DNA of 64,000 nucleotides from an uncultured Elusimicrobia bacterium (GCA_964523525.1 CAZFYO010000001.1:65068-129067); one strand, 5' to 3'. Shown: positions 24,197-51,900, counted from the stretch's first letter. The notes: generated by a model from the letters alone, not told the origin. Translations and numbers: made by a program.

Positions 24197-24592
24197 ATGA
24201 ACAAGAAGACGAGCCATCGTTGGATTGTACTATTCGCCGCCGTCTTATCGACGGGGTTCCTTTTTGCCGTGGGGGAAACGCCCACCCTCATCGATGAGGT
24301 CGTGAACTACCCCAATCCCTTTGACAGCCGCCGCGAGGACACCACGGTTTCCTATCGCCTCATCCAGGATCTGCCGGTCCGGGTCCGGATCTACGATTTG
24401 TTCGGCTACCAGGTCCGCGAACTGTACTTCCATTCGGGCTCTATCGGCGGGCAGACCGGCATCAATACGTTCCGCTGGGACGGGACCGACAGCGCGGGCC
24501 AGAAGGTATCCAAGGGCGGCTATATCTGCATGATCACGGTGGAAGGCGACCAGCCCACCCGCTCGATCCGTAAGATAGGAGTGGTCCATTAA
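24197..24592 (+). CDS. Small secreted protein consisting of a signal peptide plus one FlgD-Ig/T9SS-CTD-like beta-sandwich
   Basis: 131 aa with a signal peptide (WIVLFAAVLSTGFLFAVG). NYPNPFDS...VRVRIYDLFGYQVREL...FRWDGTDSAGQKVSKGGYICMITVEG matches the FlgD-Ig / Por-secretion-tail pattern. Good RBS (AAAGGGGAG). Confidence 0.7.
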   Translation: MNKKTSHRWIVLFAAVLSTGFLFAVGETPTLIDEVVNYPNPFDSRREDTTVSYRLIQDLPVRVRIYDLFGYQVRELYFHSGSIGGQTGINTFRWDGTDSAGQKVSKGGYICMITVEGDQPTRSIRKIGVVH

Positions 24593-24603
24593 GTAACCGA
24601 TTT

Positions 24604-26220
24604 ATGGCGAACCTGAAACGCAGCCATCGCCGCGCGAAAGTCCAGGGCCTGATCAAGGTCCTGCACGGCGCTTTGCTGTCGACGGCGGTCCTGGCTTCCA
24701 CCGTTTTCGCCGCGGGCGATACGGGCGGCCAGGTCGCGCAGTTCATGTCCTTCGGAGCGGGCGCTCGCTCGCTCTCCATGGGCCGCGCGTTCTTCGCGGT
24801 TTCCGATGACGCTTCAAGCGTTTACTCCAACCCGGCCGGCATGACCCAGCTTGAAAAGAAGGAGATCGGCTTCATGCAGGCGACCGTGGGCCTCGATTCC
24901 CAGCTGACCACCATGAACTACGTCCACCCTTCCAAGAAGGGCTGGGTCTGGGGCATCAACATGACCCAGATGAAGACGGGCGGGTTCGAGAAAGTGACGG
25001 TTAAGAGGAACAGCGCAGGAGAAATTTCGGAGCTCAAGAAGGGGGGCGATTTTTCGGACAGCAGCACGGGCTACATCTTCGGGTTCGGTAAAAAGGTGCT
25101 GAACACCCTGGCCGTGGGCATGTCGATCAAGCAGATTTCCCGGCAGCTGGACGATTCCGCCGATTCCGTCATCACCGCGGACGCCGCGGCGCTGTCCTAT
25201 CCCATGACCGACAATGCCAACTACCGCCTGGCGTTCGGCATCCAGAACATCTTCGCGATCCAGTCCGGCGATACCGATGACAAACTCCCGCTTTTGATCA
25301 AGGTCGGCAATTCCTATAAAGGCTTGAAAGACCGGATGCTGCTGGCGTTCGATATCACGCAGAACTTTACCCGGAACGTGACGGAGTGGAACATGGGCGC
25401 GGAATACTGGGTCTGGAAATACGTGGTGCTGCGGGCCGGCGTGGAAGGCAACCCCGGTTTGCGCCAGTCGAGCTTCGGACTGGGACTCCGCGTCAAAGGC
25501 GTGAACCTGGACATCGCGCAGGGCCTCACCGATTTGGGCGTTTCGTCCCGCATGGGCGCGTCCTGGAAGTTCGGCAAGTCGGTCATCGCGAAACGCGAAG
25601 ATACCGCCCGCCGGCTGATCCAGGAAGGCATCGCGGCGTACCAGCAGGGCAACTACGTGCTGGCGCTGGACCGGTTGAACCGTTCGCTTGATCTCGACCC
25701 GACCAACAACGATATCCGCACCCTGGTGGCGCGGCTCTCCGCCGTCGTGACGACGATGCCGTCGGCCGCCGGCGACAACGAAGTGGCCGGCATCATCCGC
25801 AAATCCATCCAGGATTACCTGAAAGGCGACAACAAGTCCGCCATCAATTCTCTGCGCTACGCTTATCTCGAAAAAGACCCGACCAACGAGAAGCTGCTCC
25901 AGGTGCTGAACAAGATCGAGAAGGAAGCCCGCGAGAAGATCACCGAGCGCGCCGATCAGAAGAAGAAAGGCTTCTCCTACATCGACCAGAAACTCTACGA
26001 CGCCCTGCAATCGATTTACGACGCGAAGTACGACAAGGCCATCATCCTCCTGCAGGAAGTGCTGGATCTGGACCCGCAGAACATCGAGGCCATGAAGCGT
26101 TTGGGATCGGCATTCTTCCTGATCGAACAAAAGGCCCAGGCCAAGGAAGTCTGGTCGCGCGCCATGGAGCTGGACCCCTCGGATCAAGTTATACAACAGT
26201 ACTTGAATCAGATCCCTTAG
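24604..26220 (+). CDS. PorV-like outer-membrane beta-barrel with a C-terminal TPR extension
   Basis: 538 aa with a signal peptide. Carries the motif GAGARSLSMGRAFFAVSDDASSVYSNPAGM. The barrel ends ...RMGASWKF at about aa 325. About 200 aa of TPR-like repeats follow (GNYVLALDRLNRSLDLDPTN, KYDKAIILLQEVLDLDPQN, AQAKEVWSRAMELDPSD). Confidence 0.75.
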   Translation: MANLKRSHRRAKVQGLIKVLHGALLSTAVLASTVFAAGDTGGQVAQFMSFGAGARSLSMGRAFFAVSDDASSVYSNPAGMTQLEKKEIGFMQATVGLDSQLTTMNYVHPSKKGWVWGINMTQMKTGGFEKVTVKRNSAGEISELKKGGDFSDSSTGYIFGFGKKVLNTLAVGMSIKQISRQLDDSADSVITADAAALSYPMTDNANYRLAFGIQNIFAIQSGDTDDKLPLLIKVGNSYKGLKDRMLLAFDITQNFTRNVTEWNMGAEYWVWKYVVLRAGVEGNPGLRQSSFGLGLRVKGVNLDIAQGLTDLGVSSRMGASWKFGKSVIAKREDTARRLIQEGIAAYQQGNYVLALDRLNRSLDLDPTNNDIRTLVARLSAVVTTMPSAAGDNEVAGIIRKSIQDYLKGDNKSAINSLRYAYLEKDPTNEKLLQVLNKIEKEAREKITERADQKKKGFSYIDQKLYDALQSIYDAKYDKAIILLQEVLDLDPQNIEAMKRLGSAFFLIEQKAQAKEVWSRAMELDPSDQVIQQYLNQIP

Positions 26221-26271: not shown

Positions 26272-28239
26272 TTGAATCACGCGGATCAAAATCGGGGGTC
26301 CTTGCGACTGGCCGATTTTTTTATTTTCGGGCGGATTTTCCTGCTCGCGGCCGCGCTCGTTTTTGCCTGCAAACCCATTTTTTCCGAGGACGCGCCGCCC
26401 AAGGAGCCGGGCGAGTCGGAGCTGATCGAGCGGCAGAGGATCATGGAGCGCGATCTCGAAGCGCGTATCCAAAACGTCCTGAACAAGACGCTCGGGCCCG
26501 ACCAGTCGGAAGTGAAGGTCAGCATCAATTTATCGGTGATGAAGGACGTCAAGAAGAAGTCCGGATCGGGACAGCAGAAAAAACAGAAAGAAGAAAATCC
26601 TCTGGGCGACACCAAATTTATCCTGCCGGGCGTGCCCGCGCCCAAGAACGTGGGCAAGGAAAAAGAGCCCGAGAACGTCACGAAGCAGCAGGCCGAACAG
26701 GAGCGCGAGCAGACGCAGATCAGCTTCAAGGTCATCACCTCGAAGCGCGAAGCCGTGGTCTTTTACAACGAGAAAATGAAAGCCAAGGAGGCGGAAGCCA
26801 AGCGCGCGGTGATGGCGCTGACCGACCTCAAGGACGAAGAGCTCAAGTTCATACCCGGCAAGTTCTTCACGTCGGTCTCGACGTACTGGGAAGAGTTCAT
26901 CAAGGACCCGAAGAACCTCATCTTTTCGGCCTTGCTTTTCCTCCTGCTCCTCCTCATCCTGTGGCTCTTCATCCCCCTCACCAGCTTTTTCAAGAATTAC
27001 ATTACGGCCATGAAAGAGAAGGCCGGGATCGAAGTGAAGATGGAATCGTCGAGCGAAGACGAGACCGATGCGAACAGAGACGGGCTCTCGCCCGAGGAGC
27101 TCGCAGAACGCGGGCTGCTGGGCGAAGACGGGAAGGAGGGTGAGGGAGAAATGGCGAAGAAATACGCACCGTTCGAATATATCACCGAGGAGAATTTGAA
27201 GCGCCTCCTGGGCGTGTTCCGCAAGGAGCCGCCGCAGGTCATCGCGCTTGTTCTCTCTTACCTGAAACAGGACCTCGTGAAGACCATCTATTCCGAGCTC
27301 CCCGTCGACCTCCAGGTGAAAGTCGCGGCCGAGGCCAGCGCCGTGCGCCAGGCGACCGAAGAACAGGTCCGCATGGTCGATGAAAACATCAAGGCCAAGA
27401 TTGATTTCGTGGTGGGCGGCGTGGACAACCTCATCAAAATTCTGGAAGAAGTGGATTACAAAATCCGCGACAACATCCTCGAATATTTGATGAACCACAA
27501 GCCGCAGCTTTACGAAAAAGTCCGGTCCAGCATTCTGCTGTTCGAAGATTTCGTGAAGTTCCCCGACCCCGCGGTGCAGACCATTTTGCGCGAGCTGAAA
27601 ACCGACCAGCTGGCGCGGTGCCTGCGGAACGCGAGTCCGGAGCTTCTGAACAAGTTCATGACCAACATGTCGCAGGGAGGCGCGGCGCTCCTGAAGGAAG
27701 AAATGGAGTTCGGCCGGCCCGTGAGCGACGATCAGATCGAGATGGACCGCCAATCGGTGATGAACAGCGTCAAGCAGATGGAAAGCGACGGAAAAGTCGC
27801 CATCCGCGAAAAGAAGAAGATTTCCGTCTTCGAATCGGAAGACGCGACGTCGCCTTTGACGCCCAGCATGCCGGACGAGTCCGGTTCGCGGCGCGGCGGC
27901 AAGGGCCCGGGACTGGGATTGCCGTCGGCGGCTCCCGCGCCGGGCGCCGGAGTTTCGGGCGCTGCCGGAGAAGCCGGGAACGAGGCCGCGTCCTATATTT
28001 CCTACGGCGAACAGCTCTACGCGGAAGAAAAGTTTGATGAAGCCCTGACGTACCTGCAGCACGGGGTCGAGCAGGACCCGAACAACGCGGCGGCTTATCA
28101 GACGATGGGCCACTGCTATTACAGCTTGAGCATGCCCACCGAGGCGCTGCAGTGCTACGAGTACGCGCTGTCGCTCGCGCCGGGCGACGAAACGCTCCGC
28201 CAGTGGGTGGAGCAGTTCAAGCAGAGCGTCGGAGCTTAA
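26272..28239 (+). CDS. Bitopic membrane protein: FliF/YscJ-like ring-building motif (periplasmic) + FliG middle and C-terminal domains (cytoplasmic) + TPR tail
   Basis: 655 aa, TTG start with RBS AAGGAAAGAAGAGG. TM1 is aa 16-35. The periplasmic segment IMERDLEARIQNVLNKTLGPDQSEVKVSINLS resembles the FliF segment ALEGELARTIETLGPVKSARVHLAMP. TM2 is aa 215-240. Aa ~298-512 align by eye to FliG: KEPPQVIALVLSYL vs EHPQIIATILVHL, and NMSQGGAALLKEEMEFGRPVSDDQIE...MESDGKVAI vs NMSQRAADILRDDLANRGPVRLSQVE...LAETGEMVI. TPR spans aa ~573-650. Confidence 0.8.
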   Translation: MNHADQNRGSLRLADFFIFGRIFLLAAALVFACKPIFSEDAPPKEPGESELIERQRIMERDLEARIQNVLNKTLGPDQSEVKVSINLSVMKDVKKKSGSGQQKKQKEENPLGDTKFILPGVPAPKNVGKEKEPENVTKQQAEQEREQTQISFKVITSKREAVVFYNEKMKAKEAEAKRAVMALTDLKDEELKFIPGKFFTSVSTYWEEFIKDPKNLIFSALLFLLLLLILWLFIPLTSFFKNYITAMKEKAGIEVKMESSSEDETDANRDGLSPEELAERGLLGEDGKEGEGEMAKKYAPFEYITEENLKRLLGVFRKEPPQVIALVLSYLKQDLVKTIYSELPVDLQVKVAAEASAVRQATEEQVRMVDENIKAKIDFVVGGVDNLIKILEEVDYKIRDNILEYLMNHKPQLYEKVRSSILLFEDFVKFPDPAVQTILRELKTDQLARCLRNASPELLNKFMTNMSQGGAALLKEEMEFGRPVSDDQIEMDRQSVMNSVKQMESDGKVAIREKKKISVFESEDATSPLTPSMPDESGSRRGGKGPGLGLPSAAPAPGAGVSGAAGEAGNEAASYISYGEQLYAEEKFDEALTYLQHGVEQDPNNAAAYQTMGHCYYSLSMPTEALQCYEYALSLAPGDETLRQWVEQFKQSVGA

Positions 28240-28248
28240 AGGATCGAC

Positions 28249-31200
28249 ATGGCGGACATCAGAGACAAGATCAAGACCTGGCTGAACAAGTCGCAGGATG
28301 AGGCGGCCGCCGCGCGTCCGCCCGCGTCCGGCCAGGCTCCGGGCCAGGCGCCCGCGCCGTCGTCCAAGACGCCCGAGGCGAAAGTTCCCGAACCGAAAGC
28401 CTCCGAACCGGAAGAGCCTCTGGATCTGACCGTGACCGAACCGAAAACCACGGAGCCCGGCAGCCGCCGCAACGCCGCGATGAGCCGCATGTCTTCCGCG
28501 GAAAAGGGAACCTATTTGCTGCAGGAACAGTCGGACGCGGAGAAAAAGCTGGCCGAGCTGACCCAGGAGCTGGGCGACGTCCGCAGAAAATTTCACGACG
28601 ATATCCGCAGGAAGGAAGAAGAGAAGATCAAACTTTTCGCGCACCTGGCCCAGGCGGACCAGAAGAGCCAGGCTTCCATCAGCCAGCAGCAGGCGGCCAT
28701 TGAAAAACTGCAGCGCGAAAGCCAGATGGAGATCGAGGCGCTCGAAAAACGGCTTCAGGAAGAAAGCCGCGAATGGGCCGGCGAGATCGAGGCCATCGAA
28801 AAGAACAAGGGCGAATATTCCGCTGCCGGGGACTTGAAGCGGCAGGAACTGGAAATGCAGGAAAAGCACCGCATCCAGGACCAGCAGAAGATTTTAGATC
28901 AGCTGGACGGCCAGATTGATATGGTCAGAAATAAAATTGAAGGCGAAAGAAAGAAATATGAGGAGCGCATCCGAGTGATCGAAAACGACAACCTTTCCAT
29001 CAAATCCCAGATCCAGCTCAAACAGGCGACCCAGCGGACGCACGAGCAGAAGCTGGTCGAGGAATTTTCGAGCGCCCAGACCGATTGGGAGGCCCGCATG
29101 AGGGCTCTGCAGTCCCAGATGCAGGCCGAAAAGCAGAAGTGGCAGGAGGCTCTGGGTCATAAGGAAGCCGAGTTCCGGGCCATCAAGTCCGAATTGGAAA
29201 AGAAAGATTCCGCCATGAAATTCGCCCTGAAGAGCAAAAAGGAAGACCTGCTTTCCGCGCTGGCGCGCGCCGAGGCGAAGCTCAAGAGCCTTTCCGATGA
29301 GGCCAGAAAAGAAAAGATCGAGTACGAAAAGGATTTGAAGTTCCGCACCGACGAAGCGGAGAAGCTGAAAGTCGAGCTGATGCTGCTCGATTCCCAGCTG
29401 AAAGTCGAAAGCGAAAAGGCCGAGTCCTCCATTTTATCCCTGCAGCAGGAAGCCAACAACAAGATCTCGTTCCTGGAAAGCAAAATCCAGGAGGAAAGCC
29501 GCATCGGCCAGAAGCAGGTGGAAGAAAAGAAACAAGAGATCGACAACCTGGCGCTCCAGTTCGGCATTAAAAAGAGCTCTCTCCAGGAAGAATTCTTGCA
29601 GAAGAAAGCCGATCTGGAAAAGCGCAAGAAAGAGCTTCAGGAAGAGCTCAAAAAAGCCATCCGCCTGCTCGAGAAGGAGCGGGAGGACCACCGCATCGAA
29701 GTCGCGGAGCGCGACGCGGTCATCGCCAAGATCAAGCAGGAAATGGGCAAGAGCTCGGACGAAATGGCGAAGAAGCGAGAAGAGTTTTTGGTGAGCATGG
29801 ACGCCCAAAAGCAGGAAATGGCGGCCAAAATATCCGCGCTGGAAGAGCGCGTCAAGATTGAGAAGCAGGGACTGAACGAGCTGCTGGGCCGGGAAAATCA
29901 AACCCTGATGGAAAAGAAGGCGATGCTTTCCAAGGAACAAGCGCAGGTCCAGCACGCGGTCAAAAAGCAGGAGGACGAGCTCCATTTTGAGATCACGCCC
30001 ATCAAGAACCAGATCATGGACCAGCGCAACCGCCTCGAGCAGGAGCGCGCGTCGCGCGAAAAGATTTTAGGCGCCAAGGACCAGATTATCCAGAACCTGC
30101 AAAAGCAGAAACAGACGCTTCAGGAAACGATTTTCAATTCGCTGAGCCAGCACCAGGGCCTGATAGATAAGGAAAAGGGCAAGGGCGCAGAAAAGATCGA
30201 CGAGCTGCATAAGAAGTGGGAAGTCGAGAAGAGCACTTTGGAGCAGGCGATCGCCAGCATCCGCCGGGAATACGAAAACGTGCAGAATGAAGTCGCGAAG
30301 CTCCCGCCCCAGGCGGAGTCGCAGCTGAACCTCTTCATGACCGCGCACAAGAAGGAGCTGGAGTCGCTCCAGCAGCTCCACCAGTCCGCCGTCAGCCAGC
30401 GGGACCAGGAAGAAAAACTCCATCAGAACAAGATGGCGCAGATGCAGGCGAGAGAAGACGAGCTCGCGAAAGAGCACCAGTCCCTGCAGAACAAATTTGA
30501 GGAAGCGCGACGCCGCCAGGAAGAGCAGATCGCCGAACTTCACAAGAGCCAGCAGAAACGCTCGCAGGATGCGGAGCTCGAAATCAAAAAGGCCCGCGAC
30601 GATTATCAGGCGCTCCTGAAATCGTCCGAGCAGGAATTGGAAACGCAGAAGAAATCCCTGGCCGATAAAAAAGCCGCTTTTGAAACCGACCGGCAGACCC
30701 TGGAGGCCGATTGGAACGAGAAAAAGAAAGGCCTTGAGTCCAAGATCACTGAAATCCGGGGCCAGTACGAGTCGCAGAAGGCGATCTGGCAGAAGGCCCT
30801 GGCCGACAGCACGGCTCACATCCGCGGCCTCGAACAGAAGCTCGAGCATCAGAAGAACGAACATCAACGCACTCTGGAAGCCCTCGAAGCCCGCAAAAAA
30901 GCCCAGGAATCAGATTTTGCCGCGAAAATGGAAGATCTCCGCCGCCAGAAAGCCGGGGCCGGTGATGAGCAATCCACGAAGCTCAAAGAAAAGAGCGACA
31001 ACATGGCCGCGCTGGACCGGGAGATTCAGGATTTCATTCAGCAGTCGCAGACCGATGCCGCGAACCGCAAGGCGGATATCGAGCGCCAGCAAAAAGAGTT
31101 GGAATCGCGCAAACAGGGTCTGCAGAAGGAGCTGGAGCTCGAAAGCAAACGTTCTCCGGAACTGCTGGAACAGAAAGACCGTCAGATTCAGTCTCTGAAG

Positions 31201-33231
31201 ACCGAGCTCTCCGATAACGAAACGCGATTTAAGAACGAGTGGGAAAGCATGGAGTCCGAGTTCGCGGCGTTCAACAAGACGTCGGCGGAAGCGATCAGGA
31301 CTCTGGAAAAAGAGCTGCAGGACGGAGGGGCCTCCTTCGAAAAAACCCTCGCTGAAAGGAATTTGCGGGTCCAGTCGCTGCAGGAAGAGAAGAATAAGGA
31401 AGAGGTCAAATCCAACCAGGTTTTGACCCAGCTCACCAACGAGCTGAACAAAATGAAGGCCGCTTACGAGCTCGAGATCAAGGATTTGGAAAAGAAGATC
31501 GCTCAGGAAAAGGCGCGGTTCGAACAGCAGTTCAAGGTGCGCGAAGTCGACGTCGAAGGCCTGCAGAAAACCCTCGCGCAGAAGAAGTCGCAGAGGGACG
31601 CGGCCGTGGAATCGCGCAGCAAGGAGATCGAGCAGGAAAAGCGCCGGCTGTCTCTTAGAAAGGACGATCTTTCCAAGCGGATCGCCGAAGACCGCCAGCT
31701 GGCGCAGAAAACCGTGCGCGCCCGCGAAGAAGAGATTTCCAAAATCCAGGCGGAAATCAGCGTTCATAAGGAAGAGTTCCACGCCCAGGAATCCAAATTT
31801 AAGGAACAGATCCTCCGGGAACGGTCCAAATACGAGGGCCGCATCAAGGACCTGACCAAGCATTACGAAAAAGACATCGACTCCCAAACCCGTACGCTTC
31901 AGGAAAAACAGAAGGAGCTGGAGAAACTCAATCTGCAGCTTGGCAACTGGAACGAGAATGCCCGCCTCGAGGACGAAAAGAGCCGCGAGCGCTGGGAAGA
32001 AGAACGGCTCGGCTTTGAAAAGGAAATTCAGGAGCTGGAGTATCAGCTGGCCCAAGAGCGGACGTCCATCGACGAGGCGACCGAGAAAAAATCCGAGGAG
32101 ATCAAGCGGCTCACCGCGGATCTGGCGCGGCTCCAGCAGACCTATTCGGTCCAGCTGGCCGAGTTGAAACGCGAGAAGGACAACGTCGCCAACGAGGAAA
32201 CGGAGTGGGAGAACAAACTTAAAGATGAGAAAGGGCGGCTGGCGGAAGAGGTCCGCGCGACCGAGCGCGAGCTCGAGCGGATCAAGGTCCAGCTGGCGCT
32301 CAAAGAAACCCAGGTGAACATCGAGAAGCAGAAGAAGGAGCGCGAGATCCGCTGGGCGAAGCGGCCGCTGGAGTTCAAGCTGCTCGAGTTGAAACGCAAG
32401 CAGGAAGAGAAGGAGCGCGAAGGCCGCCGCCGGTCCGAGCTCGTGGAAGCGGAGCGGAAACGCCTCGTGGCGGAAATCAAGCAGCTCGATGGGTTGATTC
32501 AGGACGAATCGAAAAAACGGGATTCCGTCCTTTCCGGATACAAAGACGAGGTGAAACACCGCATCCAGGGCCTGAGGGAGCAGGTGAAATCGGACAACAC
32601 CTCCCTCGTGCAGATGTTGTCGGCCCGCCGGGAAGAGCTGACCGGATTAAAAAACGCGTTGAAGAGCATGGACCAGGTTTTGAAGGAGTTTGAGGGAGCC
32701 AGCCAGCCCGTGCATTTCGCGGAACTGGAAGACGAGATCGCGCAGCTGGAACAGGAGCTGGCCGCGGCCGCCGAGAAAGGAAGCTCTGGATCCGCGCAGG
32801 CCGAGATCAAGGATTTCCAGCAGGAGATCAAAAACAAGAACAGGAATATATCTCAGGAGCGTTCCAAGTCGGAAAAAATTTTATCGAAGGTCAAAGGAGG
32901 GCTGGATCCCTTCTTCAAGGCGACCGACCAGTTGAGCCAGGACGCCGCGGCCGCGCGAGAGAAGTCGTCGAAAGCGAAGGCCCTGATGGAACAGGGCATG
33001 CGGGCGTTCGCGGAAGAGCGGCTGGCCGAAGCCCAGAATTATTTCCTGCAATCGATCGATCACGATTCCCGCAACGCGGTCTGTTATCAAATGCTGGGGC
33101 TCGCGTCCGAAAAGATGAAAGATATCGCGAAGGCGCGCGGTTATTTCAAGAAAGCGCTGGAGCTGGAGCCCGGAAACCAATTTCTCAAAAATCATCTGAG
33201 CCAAATGGATCAAAGTAACAAAGGAGCATGA
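28249..33231 (+). CDS. Giant (1660 aa) coiled-coil protein with a Pro/Ala-rich N-terminus and a C-terminal TPR module
   Basis: About 1450 aa of nearly uninterrupted E/K/Q/L/R heptad-like sequence. N-terminal PPASGQAPGQAPAPSSKTPEAKVPEPKASEPEEP. C-terminal AEAQNYFLQSIDHDSRNAVCYQMLGLASEKMKDIAKARGYFKKALELEPGN (TPR). Starts 9 nt after the upstream stop. Confidence 0.8.
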   Translation: MADIRDKIKTWLNKSQDEAAAARPPASGQAPGQAPAPSSKTPEAKVPEPKASEPEEPLDLTVTEPKTTEPGSRRNAAMSRMSSAEKGTYLLQEQSDAEKKLAELTQELGDVRRKFHDDIRRKEEEKIKLFAHLAQADQKSQASISQQQAAIEKLQRESQMEIEALEKRLQEESREWAGEIEAIEKNKGEYSAAGDLKRQELEMQEKHRIQDQQKILDQLDGQIDMVRNKIEGERKKYEERIRVIENDNLSIKSQIQLKQATQRTHEQKLVEEFSSAQTDWEARMRALQSQMQAEKQKWQEALGHKEAEFRAIKSELEKKDSAMKFALKSKKEDLLSALARAEAKLKSLSDEARKEKIEYEKDLKFRTDEAEKLKVELMLLDSQLKVESEKAESSILSLQQEANNKISFLESKIQEESRIGQKQVEEKKQEIDNLALQFGIKKSSLQEEFLQKKADLEKRKKELQEELKKAIRLLEKEREDHRIEVAERDAVIAKIKQEMGKSSDEMAKKREEFLVSMDAQKQEMAAKISALEERVKIEKQGLNELLGRENQTLMEKKAMLSKEQAQVQHAVKKQEDELHFEITPIKNQIMDQRNRLEQERASREKILGAKDQIIQNLQKQKQTLQETIFNSLSQHQGLIDKEKGKGAEKIDELHKKWEVEKSTLEQAIASIRREYENVQNEVAKLPPQAESQLNLFMTAHKKELESLQQLHQSAVSQRDQEEKLHQNKMAQMQAREDELAKEHQSLQNKFEEARRRQEEQIAELHKSQQKRSQDAELEIKKARDDYQALLKSSEQELETQKKSLADKKAAFETDRQTLEADWNEKKKGLESKITEIRGQYESQKAIWQKALADSTAHIRGLEQKLEHQKNEHQRTLEALEARKKAQESDFAAKMEDLRRQKAGAGDEQSTKLKEKSDNMAALDREIQDFIQQSQTDAANRKADIERQQKELESRKQGLQKELELESKRSPELLEQKDRQIQSLKTELSDNETRFKNEWESMESEFAAFNKTSAEAIRTLEKELQDGGASFEKTLAERNLRVQSLQEEKNKEEVKSNQVLTQLTNELNKMKAAYELEIKDLEKKIAQEKARFEQQFKVREVDVEGLQKTLAQKKSQRDAAVESRSKEIEQEKRRLSLRKDDLSKRIAEDRQLAQKTVRAREEEISKIQAEISVHKEEFHAQESKFKEQILRERSKYEGRIKDLTKHYEKDIDSQTRTLQEKQKELEKLNLQLGNWNENARLEDEKSRERWEEERLGFEKEIQELEYQLAQERTSIDEATEKKSEEIKRLTADLARLQQTYSVQLAELKREKDNVANEETEWENKLKDEKGRLAEEVRATERELERIKVQLALKETQVNIEKQKKEREIRWAKRPLEFKLLELKRKQEEKEREGRRRSELVEAERKRLVAEIKQLDGLIQDESKKRDSVLSGYKDEVKHRIQGLREQVKSDNTSLVQMLSARREELTGLKNALKSMDQVLKEFEGASQPVHFAELEDEIAQLEQELAAAAEKGSSGSAQAEIKDFQQEIKNKNRNISQERSKSEKILSKVKGGLDPFFKATDQLSQDAAAAREKSSKAKALMEQGMRAFAEERLAEAQNYFLQSIDHDSRNAVCYQMLGLASEKMKDIAKARGYFKKALELEPGNQFLKNHLSQMDQSNKGA

Positions 33232-35252
33232 CCATGCCAGAGCTGCCGCCCAAAAGAATTCCGCCCCCGTTAGGAGGCATGAAACCCCCTATGAAAGCGC
33301 CCGGCGCGCCGGGACTTCCCGGATTGCCGGGAGCGAAACCTCCCATGATGCCCGGCCAAACCCCAGCGCTCCCTGGGGCCAGACCCGGCATGCCCGGCCA
33401 GCATGGAATGCCCGCCGCGAACGCTCCTTCCAGCGCGGTCATTGAGGAACGGCTCAGGAAGATGGAAGAGCACGCGCGGGAAATCGAAGATTCGAAGAAA
33501 AAACTGGAAAAATCCCTCGCCGAGATGGAGATCAAGCTCAAGGACGAGAAGGAAAAAGCGCTCTCGCAGGCGATCAAGGCCCGCGAAGAGGAAGCCCTTT
33601 CCCTCAAGATGGAGCAGGCGCTCAAGGAAATGCAGGACAAGGCGCGCGTCGCGCGCCGCGAACAGGAAATGGAAGAGTCCCGCGCCCGCGCCGAGGAAAA
33701 GGCGAAAGACCTCGAACGCAGGCTGAACGAAGAGCGCGAAGCCTGGGTGATCAACCTGAAGAAGCAGATGGAGATGCGGGACCATGAAACCAAGCAGGTC
33801 GAAGGCCAGATCGAAAGCCGGTTTCACGATCTCGAAAGGCGCTGGCTCGAAGAACGGTCGGCGCTGATCCAGTCGCTCAAGTCCAAAGAGGACGAGACGC
33901 AGGATTTGAAGCAGCGGGCGGACCGCGCGGAGATCGAGCTCCACCGGATCCGGGAAGAGTCGATCAAGTCGGTCGAGCAGGAGCGCCGGAACCTGGCGTT
34001 CGAGTTCGAGTCCCGCAAGGACGAATTGCTGCGCGAGAGGGATTCTCTCGCCTCGGCGCTGGACCAGCGCGAAAACGAGCTGATGTCGCTCCGCGCCCAG
34101 CTGGCGATGGTGGATTCCCAGGTCCGCATGGCGCAGGAATCGGCGCAGAAGGGCCTGAACGAAAAGGAACGCGCCTGGCAGATGCAGATCGGAGAGATGG
34201 ACCGCGAATTCTTCCAGCTGAAACAGACGCGGGACCGCCTCGTTACCGAAAACGAAACTTTGAAGGGCGAGCTGCGCGACGTCCGCGAGCGCGCCGACGC
34301 CTTCCAGCAGAAGATGAATGAATTGCGCCTCGAAGCGGTCCGGAAAGGCGACGAATGCGAGGCTTTGTCCCGGGAGCTTTTCACGGAGCGCCAGACCTGG
34401 AGCGGCAAGATCGAGGAACGCATCCTGATGGAGCGCAACCTCCAGGAAACGCTGAACGCGCGCGAAAGCGAGCTGGGACGGCTGAAAAGCGTGTCCGCGG
34501 CGCTGGAATCGCGCCTCAAGGAGCAATTTGAGAAAGAGCGCAAGGAAGTCGAGCAGGCCAACCTGCGGTTACTGCGCGAAAAAGAGCAGAGCTACGCGGA
34601 TCTGAAAATGATCTCGGAGAGGGATAAGAGCATCATCCGCCTGGACCTTCAGGAAAAGATCGCGGAGCGCGAGCGGGAAATCGCGGCCTTAAAGCTCGAC
34701 TTCGCCCATATGCGGGCCGACTTGCTGAAACAATTCGACAAGGATAAGGAAGCCGCCCAGCACCAGTTCCAGCGGGAGTTCGGCGTGCGCGCCGACCTCA
34801 TGCAAAAGGAGCTGGACGAGGCGCACCGCGCCATGATGTCCGAGCTCGAGGCTTATGACGGAAAGATCAAGGCCGAGGAAGCGCGCCATCAAAAGGAAAT
34901 GCAGTCCAAAGAAGCTGAGGTTGTCCGGGCGGCCGAATCGGTCCGCCGGATGGAAGCCCTGGTTTCGGAGGAGCGCGAAGAGCTGGCCAGGGACCGGAGC
35001 GCCATGGAGCAGAAATTCTCCGAGGACGCGGCCCGGCTGCGCGAAAACTTTCAGAGCGAAAAAGAGCGGCTGGAACGTCAGTTGAGCGAAGCCGCCAGCG
35101 CGGCCGGAGACGACGGTTCGGGACTGTATTTCGAGCGGGAAAACAACGACCACCTGTCGCTCGGCCAGCTGATCTGGAAGTACCTGACGCGGACCGTGAT
35201 CGTTATTAATTTCAGGGGCGTTCCCCGCAAGTTCAGGAAGGTGCAGGAATGA
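33228..35252 (+). CDS. Proline/glycine-rich N-terminus + ~550-aa coiled-coil protein
   Basis: 674 aa. The ATG overlaps the upstream stop (ATGA); an alternative ATG at 33234 has better spacing from AAAGGAG. N-terminal PPKRIPPPLGGMKPPMKAPGAPGLPGLPGAKPPMMPGQTPALPGARPGMPGQHGMP, followed by E/R/K/L-rich coiled coil. Confidence 0.7.
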   Translation: MTMPELPPKRIPPPLGGMKPPMKAPGAPGLPGLPGAKPPMMPGQTPALPGARPGMPGQHGMPAANAPSSAVIEERLRKMEEHAREIEDSKKKLEKSLAEMEIKLKDEKEKALSQAIKAREEEALSLKMEQALKEMQDKARVARREQEMEESRARAEEKAKDLERRLNEEREAWVINLKKQMEMRDHETKQVEGQIESRFHDLERRWLEERSALIQSLKSKEDETQDLKQRADRAEIELHRIREESIKSVEQERRNLAFEFESRKDELLRERDSLASALDQRENELMSLRAQLAMVDSQVRMAQESAQKGLNEKERAWQMQIGEMDREFFQLKQTRDRLVTENETLKGELRDVRERADAFQQKMNELRLEAVRKGDECEALSRELFTERQTWSGKIEERILMERNLQETLNARESELGRLKSVSAALESRLKEQFEKERKEVEQANLRLLREKEQSYADLKMISERDKSIIRLDLQEKIAEREREIAALKLDFAHMRADLLKQFDKDKEAAQHQFQREFGVRADLMQKELDEAHRAMMSELEAYDGKIKAEEARHQKEMQSKEAEVVRAAESVRRMEALVSEEREELARDRSAMEQKFSEDAARLRENFQSEKERLERQLSEAASAAGDDGSGLYFERENNDHLSLGQLIWKYLTRTVIVINFRGVPRKFRKVQE

Positions 35253-35911
35253 ACGAAGAGCTCGCCAGGCTGGGAAAAAACTGGGAAGGGCGCATCAAGT
35301 CGATACAGAAAAACATCGCGGCGTCGGAAGCCCGCATGATGCCGGCGCCGATAACGGCTGCTCCCGCGCGATTTTCCGCGCCGGAAACCGGGTTGAAGTC
35401 GCAGTTCGAGGAACTTAAGCAGAGCCTCGCCGAGTTCGCCGCCGAATGGGGAAAGAACCGCCCGGCGGCCGCCTCTGTTTCGGGGCCCGATACCGCCCGC
35501 ATTGACGCGAGGCTCGGGGCGCTCGAGAAGCAGTGCGAAGATTTCAGAAACGCGCTTTCGGAAGTGCAGAAGATCGAATCGTTCATGAAGGACGCGCGCC
35601 AGAAGCAGTATGAGACGTTCGTCGAGGACCGCGGCAAGCTCCGCGTGGACTATCTGGATTTGAAGCAGGAAGTGACGCAGAAGCTGAAGATCATGCAGCT
35701 GCGCATCGAAGACCTCCTCGCGGCCAGCGCCGCGCAGTCGTTCAAAGCCGTGGACGCGCCCGAAGGCGAGGCGCACGACGTGTCCCATCTGAGCAGCATT
35801 GCGGGGACGGAGGAAAAAGGGTTCCTGCAGAGGCTGGCCGAATGGTGGAACGAGCCGGTCCTATCTTTCTCGAAAGACGAGCCGAAGGACGGTCCGACGG
35901 AAAATTCTTGA
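35249..35911 (+). CDS. Hypothetical helical protein, last gene of the coiled-coil operon
   Basis: 220 aa. ATGA overlap with the upstream gene. Predicted helical or coiled segments. No family recognised. Confidence 0.6.
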   Translation: MNEELARLGKNWEGRIKSIQKNIAASEARMMPAPITAAPARFSAPETGLKSQFEELKQSLAEFAAEWGKNRPAAASVSGPDTARIDARLGALEKQCEDFRNALSEVQKIESFMKDARQKQYETFVEDRGKLRVDYLDLKQEVTQKLKIMQLRIEDLLAASAAQSFKAVDAPEGEAHDVSHLSSIAGTEEKGFLQRLAEWWNEPVLSFSKDEPKDGPTENS

Positions 35912-35976: not shown

Positions 35977-36576
35977 ATGGGAGCAGATGTTCTAGTCCTC
36001 AACCGCAACTTTTACGCCGTCCACATCACCTCATGGCGGCGAGCCCTCTCCCTTCTGTATTTAGACCACGCCCGCGTCGTTGATCAGGAATATAAAACCT
36101 ACAGCTTTGCCGACTGGCGCGAACTCTCCCAGCTCGTCGACGACAATCCCGCCGGCTACGTTCGCACTCCTTCTTTCAAGATCGCCATCCCCGAAGTCAT
36201 CGCGCTCCGGATGTACGACGAGCTGCCCGTTTCCGAAGTCAAATTCACCCGGCGCAACATCTACGAGCACTACAGCTACATCTGCTGTTACTGCGGCAAG
36301 AAATTCGCCACGAACAATTTGAACCTGGAGCACATCATCCCGCGCTCGCGCGGCGGACAATCGACCTGGAGCAACGTCGTGACGTCCTGCATCGCCTGCA
36401 ACATCAAGAAGGGCAACAAGCTTCCCGAGGAAGCGGGCATGAAACTTTTGATCAAGCCCTCGAAGCCCAAGTGGCGCGGGGCGCAGTCGCTCATCCTGCA
36501 CGCTTCGTTCAAGGTGAAAGCCTCCTGGCAGCGCTTCGTGGACGCCGCCTACTGGAACACCGAGATCGAAGATTGA
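35977..36576 (+). CDS. HNH endonuclease family protein
   Basis: 199 aa. CCYCGKKFATNNLNLEHIIPRSRGGQSTWSNVVTSCIACNIKKGN is a complete HNH/Zn-finger motif. RBS GGAGG lies 7 nt upstream. Confidence 0.85.
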   Translation: MGADVLVLNRNFYAVHITSWRRALSLLYLDHARVVDQEYKTYSFADWRELSQLVDDNPAGYVRTPSFKIAIPEVIALRMYDELPVSEVKFTRRNIYEHYSYICCYCGKKFATNNLNLEHIIPRSRGGQSTWSNVVTSCIACNIKKGNKLPEEAGMKLLIKPSKPKWRGAQSLILHASFKVKASWQRFVDAAYWNTEIED

Positions 36577-36737
36577 CCTCCGAACCCGAACTCCAGCCCG
36601 ATTCCGAAGAAGCGGTCAAGGCGGCGCGCAAAAAAGCGTCGCAGGTCGGCCTTTTGCTGGGCGCTCTCACGCTGGTCCTCGGCTCGCTGGTCTGCCTCTT
36701 CTACCTGCTTTATTTCAAACCCTGGAAATTCCAGTAA
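36573..36737 (+). CDS. Possible 54-aa single-pass membrane peptide
   Basis: A TTG overlaps the HNH stop. The C-terminal TM reads VGLLLGALTLVLGSLVCLFYLLYF. The ORF-track version (36471..) overlaps HNH by about 100 nt and is unlikely as drawn. Weak call. Confidence 0.3.
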   Translation: MTSEPELQPDSEEAVKAARKKASQVGLLLGALTLVLGSLVCLFYLLYFKPWKFQ

Positions 36738-36771
36738 ATATCTGAAGATAATTATCTGAACGGAGGACTTT

Positions 36772-37086
36772 ATGTCAAATCCCGAATCGGGCCAGAAGGC
36801 GGGACAGATGCAGATCGAAATCGACGACGCGACGGCGCAGGGCGAGTACGCCAACCTCGCGCTGATCAGCCATTCCGAGACGGAGATGATCCTGGACTTC
36901 ATCTTTATCCAGCCGCAGGCCGCCAAAGCCAAGGTCCGGTCGCGCATCATCACCTCCCCATTGCACGCCAAGAAAGTCCTCCAGGCCCTCGAAGACAACA
37001 TCAAAAAGTATGAATCCCGATTCGGAAAGATTGAAACGGAAAACCCGCCCAGGACCGACGGCCCCAACATCGGTTTTTACCACTAG
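36772..37086 (+). CDS. DUF3467-like small protein
   Basis: 104 aa. GEYANLALISHSETEMILDFIFIQP...ARVRSRIITSPLHAKKVLQAL matches my recollection of the DUF3467 pattern. Confidence 0.65.
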   Translation: MSNPESGQKAGQMQIEIDDATAQGEYANLALISHSETEMILDFIFIQPQAAKAKVRSRIITSPLHAKKVLQALEDNIKKYESRFGKIETENPPRTDGPNIGFYH

Positions 37087-37116
37087 AACTTCAATCGTTC
37101 AAATTTAGGCGTTTCC

Positions 37117-38367
37117 ATGAGGATCGAGATTGTTTGCTTTGGCTCCGAGCTCCTGCTCGACAAGGTCAACACGAATTCGAACGCGATTGCGCAGAAACTG
37201 GAGTCGCTGGGTTTTGAAGTCCGCCAGGTTGTCACCGTCGGCGACGATCCTGCGGACGTAACGCAGGCCCTGCGCGAATCGCTCCGGCGCTCGGACGCGG
37301 TCCTCACCTGCGGCGGGCTCGGTCCTACGTTCGATGATCTCACCCGAGACTGCGCGTCTAAAGTCGTTAACCGCCCGCTCATCTACTCCAGATCCATCCA
37401 CGACCGCATCGCGGCCCGTTTCCGTTCCGTTCACCTTGCCATGCCCGCGGAAAACAAAAATCAGGCCTATCTCGTGCAGGGCGCAAAGGAAATCCCGAAC
37501 GCTTTCGGCACCGCCCCGGGCCAGATCATTGAATGGAAAGGTAAAAGCCTGATTCTGCTGCCGGGACCCGCCAAAGAATGCCTGCCGATGATGGATCAGG
37601 CGGTTCTTCCCTATTTCAGGCGGCGTTTTAAGGCGCAAATTTCAAAGCGGCTCATGCTGCACGTTTACGGGCATCCGGAATCGGCCATCGATGAATTGAT
37701 CCAGCCCGTGGTGGCGAAAATGTGGAAAGAAAAGGGCGCCGCGGCCGTCTTTGGCATTCTGGCGCACCGTTCCATTATCGACGTGAAGGCGACGGTGCGG
37801 GGCAAAAATCGCGCGGCGGTCGAAAAAATGGTCCGGCAGATTAAATCCGAGCTTCAATGGATTTTGGGAGAGAAGGTTTACGGGGAAGATGACGATACGC
37901 TGGAGTCCGTCGCGGGCGGCCTGTTAAAAGCGAGGCGGCAGACCCTGGCGACGGCGGAATCCTGCACGGGCGGGCGGATCGCCAACAAGATTACGGATAT
38001 CGCTGGAAGCTCCTCATATTTCATGGAAGGGGCCGTGACCTACTCCAACGCGAGCAAAATGCGGATCCTGGGCGTGAGAAAAGCGACTTTGGGCAAGTTT
38101 GGCGCGGTGAGCGAGGAATGCGCGGAAGAAATGGCGCGGGGAATCCGCGAGCGGGCAAAAGCGGATTGGGGTCTTTCCGTAACGGGCATCGCCGGGCCCG
38201 ACGGCGGCAGCCAAGCGAAACCCATCGGCACCGTTTATTTCGGGATTGCTTCGAAGCTCGGCGTAAAAACCGTCCGAAAGAATTTTTTTGGCACCCGGAC
38301 CGAGATCAAGGAAAAATCCGCGCTTTTCGCGCTCAACTTTCTTCGGCTGGAGTTATTGAAGAGGTAA
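37117..38367 (+). CDS. cinA: CinA family protein (MoCF-like domain + nicotinamide-nucleotide amidohydrolase PncC domain)
   Basis: 416 aa. MRIEIVCFGSELLLDKVNTNSNAIAQKL..., TCGGLGPTFDDLT, and C-terminal ESCTGG...GIAGP motifs. Confidence 0.9.
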   Translation: MRIEIVCFGSELLLDKVNTNSNAIAQKLESLGFEVRQVVTVGDDPADVTQALRESLRRSDAVLTCGGLGPTFDDLTRDCASKVVNRPLIYSRSIHDRIAARFRSVHLAMPAENKNQAYLVQGAKEIPNAFGTAPGQIIEWKGKSLILLPGPAKECLPMMDQAVLPYFRRRFKAQISKRLMLHVYGHPESAIDELIQPVVAKMWKEKGAAAVFGILAHRSIIDVKATVRGKNRAAVEKMVRQIKSELQWILGEKVYGEDDDTLESVAGGLLKARRQTLATAESCTGGRIANKITDIAGSSSYFMEGAVTYSNASKMRILGVRKATLGKFGAVSEECAEEMARGIRERAKADWGLSVTGIAGPDGGSQAKPIGTVYFGIASKLGVKTVRKNFFGTRTEIKEKSALFALNFLRLELLKR

Positions 38368-46496: not shown

Positions 46497-46961
46497 TTGA
46501 AGAAAAACGACAGAGTCTCACCGTCGAAAATCCGGGCGATCTGCAAGATCACCGGGGTTTCTCTCGTTTTTTTTGCCACTAACCTGAACCTGCTTTTCAG
46601 CGCCGAGCGCAAGGTCGCGAACCCCTCCAAATTTAAGGTCAATTATTCCCTGCAGAAATCGGGAGCTTCCGGCGGATCGGGGCCCAACGCTTTCGGCGCT
46701 CCGGGACTTTTCGGAGCCTCGGGCGTTTCGGGCGGATCGGCGGCCGCAGCCAGCATCGCGGTCAACATCCTCGACGAGCGGTTCTATCCCATCAAAGCCT
46801 TCGTCCTGCGGGACGTGACGGACACTTCCCGGGTCGAGTCCCTCTGGGACGGCCGCGACGTGTACGGCAAGGAATCTCCCGCCGGCAGATATTACGCCCA
46901 GCTTTCGATCGTGTATGGCGACGGCAGCCGCGAAACCAAGGTCTTCAAGTTCGTCAAATGA
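46497..46961 (+). CDS. Small secreted protein: signal/TM + Gly/Ser/Ala linker + FlgD-Ig-like domain
   Basis: TTG at 46497 preceded by GGGGGA. The ORF-track start at 46362 would overlap the divergent panD start. Hydrophobic ITGVSLVFFATNLNLLFS. Linker GASGGSGPNAFGAPGLFGASGVSGGSAAAA. C-terminal LWDGRDVYGKESPAGRYYAQLSIVYGDG matches the FlgD-Ig pattern. The stop overlaps the next ATG (ATGA). Confidence 0.6.
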   Translation: MKKNDRVSPSKIRAICKITGVSLVFFATNLNLLFSAERKVANPSKFKVNYSLQKSGASGGSGPNAFGAPGLFGASGVSGGSAAAASIAVNILDERFYPIKAFVLRDVTDTSRVESLWDGRDVYGKESPAGRYYAQLSIVYGDGSRETKVFKFVK

Positions 46962-50581: not shown

Positions 50582-50582
50582 G

Positions 50583-51596: not shown

Positions 51597-51900
51597 CCTC
51601 CCCCAGCATAATTGGATCCGTTTCTACAGTATGTGTAGGATAATTCTTTGTTAACCCCAACAATTGCGGCTTCGCGCGCTACAGCGGTTCATTGGGTGCC
51701 TCGATCGCGACAAAGCTGTTTACGTTCTCAGCGCCGAACGGCGTGTATGTGGACGCGGCGTCTCAGTCAAACTGGTATATCTCGAACCAAATAGTTTTTT
51801 AGAATGAAGCTAAGATTCAATTCACATCGGATTGAAAATAGTTAATTTTGATATACTCAAATCAGGCCGATTTAGAAAACTCACAAGAAGGAGACTTTGG

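Follow-up and report, generated by a model that had tools for sequence, protein, structure and literature searches.

A natural fusion of a FliF RBM3-like domain with FliG_MC and a TPR tail, proposed as a rotor subunit in Elusimicrobiota

A FliF-FliG fusion gene in an Elusimicrobia operon

We analyzed a 64,000-nucleotide stretch of DNA from an uncultured Elusimicrobia bacterium (GCA_964523525.1, CAZFYO010000001.1:65068-129067), referred to here as the window; positions are counted from its first letter and the operon described lies on the plus strand. An open reading frame (ORF) at 26272..28239 encodes a 655-aa protein in which a periplasmic domain resembling the third ring-building motif (RBM3) of FliF is followed by a transmembrane helix, the middle and C-terminal domains of FliG (FliG_M and FliG_C, together FliG_MC) and a tetratricopeptide repeat (TPR) tail. 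We defined this fusion by the ORF call, by Pfam and NCBIfam matches, by an AlphaFold2 model and by Foldseek searches, and we propose that it is a rotor subunit. The start codon is TTG, with an AAGAGG Shine-Dalgarno sequence 8 nt 5′ of it, and close homologs at 89% and 79% identity have lengths of 657 and 646 aa. The AlphaFold2 model was built on an alignment of 116 family sequences (mean predicted local confidence, pLDDT, 79.8), which have 16 invariant columns at an overall identity of ~35%.

An initial annotation, made from the sequence alone, had described a FliF-like topology with membrane helices at aa 16-35 and 215-240, and the model bears this out with slightly different limits. The N-terminal hydrophobic helix (26302..26364) spans aa 11-31 in AlphaFold2 and aa 11-29 in a Kyte-Doolittle scan; it is predicted to be a signal anchor or a cleavable signal peptide and is weakly conserved (18% identity in the window's clade). 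The second transmembrane helix (26908..27024) spans aa 213-251 in AlphaFold2 and 212-230 by Kyte-Doolittle, and its identity across the same clade is 71%. A disordered, acidic, low-confidence linker of ~48 aa (aa 252-298, AlphaFold2) separates this helix from FliG_M, and a second disordered linker of ~50 aa, rich in Gly, Pro and Ala, leads from FliG_C to the C-terminal tail (aa 566-655; 27967..28239). The tail holds two repeats (Pfam TPR_1/TPR_2, aa 572-640) modeled at a pLDDT of ~97, as the initial annotation had supposed. We also considered an SctJ-like lipoprotein N-terminus and rejected it, as the Cys of 'LVFAC' (aa 33) is not conserved among 43 homologs.

The periplasmic domain resembles FliF RBM3 and SpoIIIAG

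The periplasmic segment of ~180 aa has space for one RBM only in the AlphaFold2 model, which agrees with the single RBM-sized unit first proposed. The split motif at 26413..26859, delimited with AlphaFold2, Foldseek and profile searches, consists of α1 (aa 48-74), β1 (79-95), an insertion (96-147), β2 (148-166), α2 (167-184) and β3 (191-196). The core elements have pLDDT values above 90 and the insertion of ~50 aa is modeled with low confidence; within its 'LPGVPxPK' stretch P119 and P122 are invariant and P124 is near-invariant.

Because a full-length Foldseek search was swamped by FliG and TPR matches, the periplasmic domain was modeled separately. Searched alone against the PDB, its 18 best matches are all FliF RBM3, S-ring or collar structures (E = 2.8e-5 to 3.1e-3), followed by SpoIIIAG (E = 8.5e-3), and the fold matches to PrgK are weak (4oyc, E = 0.11; 2y9j, E = 0.14). 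Using hmmsearch, a periplasmic profile of 24 family sequences matched SpoIIIAG at E = 0.002 and Vibrio FliF RBM3 (residues 264-381) at E ~0.3, the latter with LPGVP opposite FliF GVPGALSNQPP. Pfam YscJ_FliF_C (PF08345) is matched by 9 of these 24 members (best E = 2.2e-4), and PF01514 (YscJ_FliF) gave no match at E ≤ 1 for the fusion or at E ≤ 10 for the 24 members. An hhalign comparison of the periplasmic profile with E. coli FliF aligned residues 226-271, the start of RBM3, at a probability of 5% (E = 0.0077), a weak corroboration. Based on the Foldseek ranking and on the SpoIIIAG and FliF profile matches, the modeled domain is of the FliF RBM3/SpoIIIAG split type with a β-hairpin insertion, and not of the YscJ/SctJ RBM1-2 type. 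Of the "FliF/YscJ-like" ring motif in the initial annotation, the FliF half thus stands and the YscJ half falls. The assignment as an RBM3 with a β-collar insertion holds at the level of the fold, with a weak signal in the sequence.

FliG_M and FliG_C are retained and FliG_N is absent

FliG_M (ARM_M) occupies aa 299-382 (27166..27417; Pfam PF14841 at aa 311-378, 39.4 bits, cut-off 25) and FliG_C, including an MFXF-type hinge that reads LLFED, occupies aa 383-512 (27418..27807; Pfam PF01706 at aa 406-511, 97.4 bits, E = 7.7e-28, cut-off 23.3). AlphaFold2 places the two domains at aa 309-505. Against Thermotoga FliG-MC (1lkv) the alignment takes in aa 299-512 (E = 3.6e-33), and Foldseek against the PDB recovers the same structure at E = 1.7e-11. 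Foldseek also overlays FliG_C of the fusion on 8ucs_H, the FliG_C bound to the stator in the MotAB-FliG complex, with a TM-score of 0.93 and a root-mean-square deviation of 1.2 Å. The E-values of these FliG matches are well past chance level, and FliG is present from the EHPQ region through the torque helix, as had been aligned by eye. MgtE_N (PF03448), the other identity considered for this domain, was rejected because its match of 26.6 bits is a cross-match to 50 residues that lie within FliG_C (97 bits); neither a CBS nor an MgtE domain accompanies it. The outcome that the initial annotation had named as its own refutation thus did not occur.

No FliG_N domain was found in the fusion, where PF14842 gives just a 16-bit cross-match inside FliG_M and the full-length FliG model TIGR00207 aligns only from model position 109 (116 bits, cut-off 226.7). 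There is no space for FliG_N, because merely ~48 low-confidence acidic residues separate the second transmembrane helix from FliG_M. FliG_N and the FliF tail, which normally join FliF to FliG, are replaced by a covalent link, in line with the initial annotation.

Residues are numbered according to E. coli below, with the MG1655 motA, motB, fliF and fliG sequences as the reference. The EHPQR motif is degenerate and reads KEPPQ in the fusion; among the 116 family members E125 is found in 115 and P127 in 114, H126 is E or P and Q128 is W or Q, and R160 of the FliM-binding motif is E in 108. The Gly-Gly linker at the end of FliG_M (E. coli G194-G195, here G382-G383) is present in 116/116, and the MFXF-type hinge, which follows the pattern (I/V)xLF(E/D)D in the family, has its Phe (F236) in 112/116.

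The torque-helix segment NMSQGGAALLKEEMEFGRPVS (aa 465-485; 27664..27726) was located by alignment to E. coli FliG. The E. coli string NMSQRAADILRDDLANRGPV, which the initial annotation had quoted, agrees with the actual MG1655 FliG, and the strings it quoted from the fusion are present. Its reading of the helix is also correct: the acidic pair D288/D289 is kept as E476/E477, R281 becomes G469 and R297 becomes S485. Across the family position 281 is Gly and position 288 is Glu in all 116 members, position 289 is Glu in 65 and Ser in 47, position 297 is Thr in 100 and Ser in 12, and position K264 is Arg in 92 and Lys in 15 with more variation among genome loci. The G281/E288 pattern persists in loci without a nearby stator, and in the window's own clade, which is not linked to a stator, FliG_M (82% identity) and FliG_C (77%) are the best-conserved domains. 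In these alignments the fusion keeps the hinged torque-receiver features of FliG_C; FliG_N is gone, as are half of the conserved charges and the greater part of the FliM site.

Most relatives are linked to flagellar-type stators

Gene neighborhoods were compared over 85 fetched loci and the window, with ~10 kb on each side. A PorV-family gene lies directly upstream of the fusion in 60 of the 67 loci whose upstream sequence is 2 kb or longer. Downstream, a FlbD-MotA-MotB cassette is present in 26/41 loci with at least 9.5 kb of flank (36/51 with at least 6 kb), usually followed by a gene for a 231-aa lipoprotein. In the majority of loci (class A) long ORFs spanning 1.4-7.7 kb stand between the fusion and the cassette; in seven loci (class B) the cassette abuts the fusion with a gap of at most 74 bp and there is no PorV-like gene upstream.

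The linkage was seen at loci L001, L004 and L093. The L004 operon encodes a 12,492-aa protein with a C-terminal domain (CTD), a PorV-like protein, the fusion, an 881-aa ORF, FlbD, MotA, MotB and the lipoprotein. Locus L093 encodes a surface protein of at least 2988 aa, a FecR-domain protein, a fusion without the tail, MotA, two tandem MotB proteins and a separate 285-aa TPR protein.

Several features of these loci are recorded as side observations. The predicted 12,492-aa protein of L004 (1-8088), directly upstream of the PorV-like gene, ends in the CTD-like domain of the 131-aa ORF that opens the window's operon (see below). A conserved ORF of ~56 aa with a single transmembrane segment lies between FlbD and MotA at L001 (12144-12314) and other class B loci, and only in class B, whose stators keep both R90 and E98. 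The class A lipoprotein after MotB (L004 16634-17329 and ~25 other loci; ~231 aa, predicted, with a signal peptide ending in LAGC and a weak CarboxypepD_reg match) may be a periplasmic part of the machine.

The linked stators are of the flagellar type and intact. The linked MotA matches flagellar MotA and PomA at E = 1e-47, among them the MotA chain of 8ucs (the MotAB-FliG complex), the linked MotB has the Pfam domains MotB_plug and OmpA, and FlbD is a clear Pfam match. MotA P173 and P222 are present in 44/44 and MotB D32 in 19/19, and with the L004 MotA as query the identity of the linked MotA proteins ranges from 65 to 91%. In the canonical motor MotA R90 pairs with FliG D288/D289 and MotA E98 with FliG R281 (PMC12505986). 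Of the 44 linked MotA proteins, 43 have K or R at position 90 and 31 have Gln at position 98; comparing the canonical pairs with the family residues at 90/288 and 98/281, one charge pair is kept and the other is lost on both sides at the family level. A literature search on the mechanism of FlbD gave nothing useful. We rejected Zorya or another defense system as the identity of these genes, as PADLOC gives only a generic MotB-ZorB cross-match and the linked MotA is unmatched.

Using tblastn, 22 E. coli flagellar core proteins gave no match in the window and the 85 loci (1.33 Mb), and E. coli FliG, MotA and MotB, run as controls, matched 75, 42 and 41 loci, respectively.

The operon in the window

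Between 24197 and 35911 the genes lie close together, with gaps of −4 to 52 bp. The first (24197..24592) encodes a secreted, CTD-only protein of 131 aa with a signal peptide, an NYPNPF motif and a β-sandwich resembling both FlgD_ig and the CTD of type IX secretion system (T9SS) cargo. It matches Pfam FlgD_ig (26.4 bits) and NCBIfam C-terminal-domain models of PorU (41.5 bits), PorZ and M6i; TIGR04183, at 20.2 bits, is slightly below its cut-off of 23, and the L041 counterpart matches Por_Secre_tail/CHU_C. The second gene (24604..26220) encodes an outer-membrane β-barrel of the PorV/PorQ family (aa ~44-323; NCBIfam NF033709 PorV_fam, 96 bits, cut-off 90; Pfam UPF0164 and TPR) with a C-terminal TPR extension of ~200 aa that is presumably periplasmic.

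The fusion gene is followed after 10 bp by a gene for a 1660-aa protein (28249..33231) of coiled-coil-like composition with a TPR tail. Its Pfam matches are to the C-terminal TPR only and it has no transmembrane segment; it is a possible cytoplasmic partner of the fusion's own TPR tail, and long ORFs occupy the same place in L003, L027 and L041. The next gene (33228..35252), overlapping it by 4 bp, encodes a 674-aa protein with a Pro-rich N-terminus and coiled-coil-like composition, for which we found no Pfam match and no transmembrane segment. The final gene (35249..35911), whose start again overlaps the preceding gene by 4 bp, encodes a 220-aa protein without a Pfam match or a tblastn match in the 85 loci at E ≤ 1e-5. 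The TPR tails of the three consecutive products encoded at 24604-26220, 26272-28239 and 28249-33231 resemble one another at 45-47 bits, against 25-34 bits for an unrelated TPR protein of the window; one of the three should be periplasmic and two cytoplasmic. A terminator scan of the operon found 24 candidates, not above the 25.5 expected from shuffling, and PADLOC gave no match for any protein of the window's operon.

Three further observations concern the rest of the window. Beyond the operon, at 35977-38367, come genes for a 199-aa HNH endonuclease, a DUF3467 protein and CinA, and the same order recurs at 19573-21762 of L003, a 67%-identical relative of the window; this is probably unrelated housekeeping synteny. 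Pairs of a gene for a CTD-bearing secreted protein and a PorV/PorQ-barrel gene occur three times, at 24197-26220, 46958-51596 and 52742-58764, with barrels scoring 96, 152 and 163 bits on NF033709, and one cargo passes the cut-off for the T9SS type A sorting domain (TIGR04183, 28.5 vs 23). As the T9SS has been described as unique to Bacteroidetes (PMC8564354), the T9SS-like sorting modules of Elusimicrobiota merit a study of their own. Finally, G+C falls to 0.39-0.46 at 52001-56000, compared with ~0.57 elsewhere. The drop starts at the end of an ORF (51832-52761) and runs into the gene for a 1688-aa fn3/Big_7/M23 surface protein (52742-57808), and the segment could be a recent acquisition or repeat-rich adhesin sequence.

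Distribution and variants of the family

More than 150 full-length homologs have the same architecture, and every named one comes from metagenome-assembled genomes (MAGs) of Elusimicrobia or Elusimicrobiota. A scan of 185,579 species-level genomes found relatives in at least 124; of these, 80 were kept, almost all titled Elusimicrobia, Elusimicrobiota or Endomicrobia. When FliG_MC alone was used as the query in a HMMER search, the fusion architecture took the top ~70 clusters and canonical FliG proteins of ~335 aa appeared from about E = 1e-28. The same search returned a sister variant of 455-490 aa that lacks the TPR tail, with named members from Endomicrobiales and Elusimicrobiota, and natural FliF-FliG fusions of ~790-920 aa that combine full-length FliF with canonical torque helices.

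Individual variants were noted in passing. The tail-less fusion of L093 (10001-14703; Endomicrobiales MAG GCA_016930715.1) is 478 aa long and has Q/E rather than E/E at E. coli D288/D289. Three proteins, P0344 and P0366 (~900 aa) and P0351 (787 aa), are full-length FliF fusions with R281 and the acidic pair, and P0344 and P0366 also have R297. By eye, P0344 may contain a stretch resembling FliG_N and in P0351 FliF may be joined straight to FliG_MC; the latter is labeled 'flagellar M-ring protein FliF' by JGI. The literature searched describes no such natural fusion besides that of Chlamydia. An oddly built protein, P0340 (996 aa), combines two tandem FliG_MC modules with a FliM-like peptide at its N-terminus and a long series of repeats of ~35 aa (LEYVPE...CLEAVK).

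A proposed rotor subunit and the alternatives

We consider it probable that the fusion serves as the rotor subunit in a MotAB-powered, ion-driven ring machine, non-flagellar and typical of Elusimicrobiota. In the proposed mechanism, copies of the fusion would assemble through the RBM into an S-ring-like ring in the inner membrane that bears a crown of FliG_C domains. Peptidoglycan-anchored MotA5B2 stators would push on this crown through a simplified interface, MotA K/R90 against FliG E288, with the second pair (MotA E98/FliG R281) dropped on both sides, so that the ring would turn or at least be driven. The cytoplasmic TPR tail would dock coiled-coil proteins where a C-ring would normally sit. 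The output is uncertain; it may be the movement or export of surface proteins in a gliding- or type-IX-like manner, as suggested by the CTD protein or giant adhesin and the PorV-family barrel encoded upstream and by the giant coiled-coil proteins encoded downstream. The PorV/CTD surface-protein module is the likely periplasmic partner and the coiled-coil proteins are the likely cytoplasmic ones. In the window's clade the stator genes would be encoded outside the operon, elsewhere in the genome. We put forward only tentatively the fuller proposal that the whole system is an envelope machine of a new type, serving gliding or the transport of surface proteins: a rotary motor independent of any flagellum, with a fused ring in which a MotAB/FlbD drive acting through a single charge pair passes torque to the PorV/CTD system and to the giant coiled-coil proteins and not to a rod and filament. 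Such a machine would be either a present-day model of a pre-export 'proto-rotor' or the core of a flagellar motor put to another use once the flagellum was lost.

Several points weigh against a driven rotor. Fifteen of the 41 full-flank loci have no stator within 10 kb (class C), and these include the window's whole clade, with the relatives L003, L010 and L011 at 60-67% identity; at L041 the operon ends at unrelated peptidase genes, again without a stator. A scan of the window's ORFs found no gene of the MotA/ExbB family in its 64 kb, and walking out from both ends of the window yielded Logan fragments of 3-9 kb in which no stator was found. A search for the clade's stator with a MotA profile in a 5.8-billion-protein set was dominated by near-identical stators of other clades. 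The initial annotation had left open whether the fusion faces a stator-like partner or is a static scaffold; the neighborhoods of the relatives favor a stator partner and the window itself is without a stator gene. Locus by locus, there is no clean covariation between FliG positions 264, 289 and 297 and MotA positions 90 and 98, and only the joint family-level loss of R281 and E98 stands, and the loss of both torque-helix arginines could equally mean that torque transmission was lost. The likeness of the periplasmic domain to FliF is weak in sequence (hmmsearch E ~0.3, hhalign probability 5%), and its Foldseek TM-scores are just 0.33-0.50, because the hairpin and insertion are loosely modeled. 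The flagellar screen used E. coli queries over ~10 kb on each side of the loci, and the absence of flagellar genes from whole genomes comes from the KEGG-based census of a single preprint (bioRxiv 10.1101/2022.07.08.499144). Ring assembly, rotation and output, including any link to PorV or to surface proteins, are argued only from homology and gene order.

The likeliest alternative is a static scaffold or adaptor, a fixed inner-membrane ring or cluster in which FliG_MC and the TPR tail only recruit partners and nothing rotates; the partners would be the coiled-coil proteins and possibly stator-like units serving as anchors or pullers. The two torque-helix arginines are gone in every member and the charge at R160 is reversed, about one third of the operons, including the window's, have no stator, and a TPR tail beside giant coiled-coil-like neighbors resembles a structural assembly. 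Yet most relatives are tightly linked to intact flagellar-type stators, as is the independent tail-less variant. FliG_C keeps the features of a mobile torque receiver essentially unchanged, with the acidic residue of the torque helix, the Gly-Gly linker before it and the hinge (Phe in 112/116), and it closely fits the stator-bound conformation. We regard a static scaffold as unlikely.

Also stator-driven, and in our view rather improbable, would be a system without a closed rotor, in which MotAB engages single fusion proteins that are moved laterally along a coiled-coil track in the manner of Myxococcus Agl-Glt. The very long coiled-coil-like cytoplasmic proteins conserved beside the fusion, the first of which shares the TPR tail module in the window, would suit such a track, as would the giant adhesin-like surface proteins and outer-membrane barrels of the same operons, and the gliding stator AglRS has been placed among the MotAB relatives (PMC12505986). 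Against it, the periplasmic domain is of the RBM3 type, which in FliF and SpoIIIAG forms closed rings of at least 30 subunits, and the stators, which are MotA/PomA-like and come with FlbD and a plug-bearing MotB, belong to the flagellar clade and not to the AglRS/TolQR type.

We think it very improbable that the fusion serves, as MS-ring and rotor in one, in a genuine though reduced flagellum with its remaining genes elsewhere in the genome. FliF-FliG fusions of ~790-920 aa do occur in nature, one of them (P0351) named FliF by JGI, the FlbD stator cassette is of the flagellar type, the genome is viewed only through a 64-kb window, and the preprint's motility section mentions a few Elusimicrobiota with complete flagellar sets (bioRxiv 10.1101/2022.07.08.499144). 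However, the fusion has no RBM1 or RBM2, which surround the export gate in FliF, no FliG_N and no usable FliM-binding motif, there is no flagellar gene within ~10 kb at the 86 loci, and the same section reports most carriers as lacking flagellar structural genes. Its conserved partners, a PorV-family barrel and CTD proteins, are non-flagellar. A decaying, functionless relic of a lost flagellum, to which the lost canonical charges and FliM-binding motif and a mostly non-flagellated phylum might point, is scarcely credible for an intact ORF that is kept in at least 124 species-level genomes in a conserved operon, with 16 invariant columns at ~35% identity, FliG domains that are its most conserved parts and linked MotA proteins that are 65-91% identical.

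The flagellar motor is the textbook ion-driven rotary machine, and how its rotor, stator and export apparatus came to be joined is a long-open question. Here a single polypeptide holds a pared-down rotor, one RBM joined to the half of FliG that receives torque, matched by simplified stators, with no genes for an export apparatus, rod, hook, C-ring or filament nearby. If it turns, the FliF-RBM3/FliG_MC/MotAB core would work as a self-contained module, and one that offers a small target for structural and single-molecule study, because a single rotor gene could be co-expressed with motA, motB and flbD. It would add a new role for rotary torque in the cell envelope, in a phylum of which little is known, and might account for the movement of non-flagellated magnetotactic Elusimicrobiota. 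A phylogeny of FliG and MotA against their flagellar counterparts would tell a flagellum-derived origin from a side branch. Even if it does not turn, the fusion would be the clearest natural case of a peptide bond taking the place of FliG_N and the FliF tail.

Comparison with known systems

The genes themselves have been reported before. According to its motility section, one preprint finds fliG, motAB and flbD in most free-living Elusimicrobiota that lack flagellar structural genes, calls their role enigmatic and notes a few genomes with complete flagellar sets (bioRxiv 10.1101/2022.07.08.499144); in the literature searched it is the only source to bring FliG, MotAB and Elusimicrobiota together. 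Two of its genomes are loci L014 and L052 of our set, and its orphan genes, treated there as KEGG calls, are the same as the fusion and stators described here. That motility section makes no mention of a FliF-like domain or a fusion, of the missing FliG_N and the changed torque helix, of a TPR tail, or of partners of the PorV/CTD and coiled-coil kinds. What is new here is the architecture and the operon, which are absent from the literature searched; the presence of the genes and the precedent of a chlamydial fusion were already known.

The fusion resembles flagellar FliF and FliG (Salmonella, E. coli) in its two transmembrane helices around a periplasmic domain of the RBM3/β-collar type, in FliG_M, the Gly-Gly linker, FliG_C, the MFXF-type hinge and the acidic torque residue, and in that its relatives have flagellar-type MotA and MotB. 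In contrast to FliF, it carries one of three RBMs, has no FliF C-terminal tail and adds a TPR tail; in contrast to FliG, it has no FliG_N, a degenerate EHPQR motif, Gly for R281 and Thr or Ser for R297. Unlike in flagella, no genes for an export gate, rod, hook, C-ring or filament lie near the fusion loci. The engineered FliF-FliG fusions of Salmonella (PDB 8z4d/8z4g) are a related comparison to this natural one, and rotation is known to tolerate a covalent join between FliF and FliG (Francis 1992, Thomas 2001, as cited in PMC4768692).

SpoIIIAG (PDB 5wc3), the best sequence-profile match of the periplasmic domain, is likewise a single split RBM with an insertion between β1 and β2 beside a membrane helix. 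It differs in having no cytoplasmic FliG module and no stator, and it belongs to the sporulation A-Q complex of Firmicutes, whereas the fusion loci have no sporulation context.

As in the T9SS and gliding machinery of Bacteroidota, the operon opens with a CTD-like protein and a PorV/PorQ-family barrel above the NCBIfam cut-off, and such parts are paired with an ion-driven motor of the MotAB/ExbBD superfamily; the PorL/M motor is described in PMC8754138, and PorV acts as a cargo shuttle (PMC5562754). None of PorK/N, PorL/M, Sov/SprA or PorU turned up in Pfam and NCBIfam scans of the window's ORFs and flanks, in which no search was aimed at them. The motor of the fusion system is different, a flagellar-type MotAB with a FliF/FliG-type rotor in place of GldLM/PorLM.

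The closest natural parallel in form is the FliF-FliG fusion of Chlamydiaceae (CT719 family; Bergeron 2016, PMC4768692), which is also short, has a signal sequence, two transmembrane helices and a reduced periplasmic part, and comes from bacteria regarded as non-flagellated; NCBIfam PRK05934 gives a weak local match on aa 308-351 of our fusion. The chlamydial protein of ~330 aa has an RBM2-like unit and a second predicted RBM, no SpoIIIAG-like RBM3 and FliG_M only (PMC4768692), and therefore has neither a torque helix nor a stator context. The Elusimicrobiota fusion is nearly the reverse, with an RBM3-like motif only, FliG_M together with FliG_C and a TPR tail, and linkage to MotAB.

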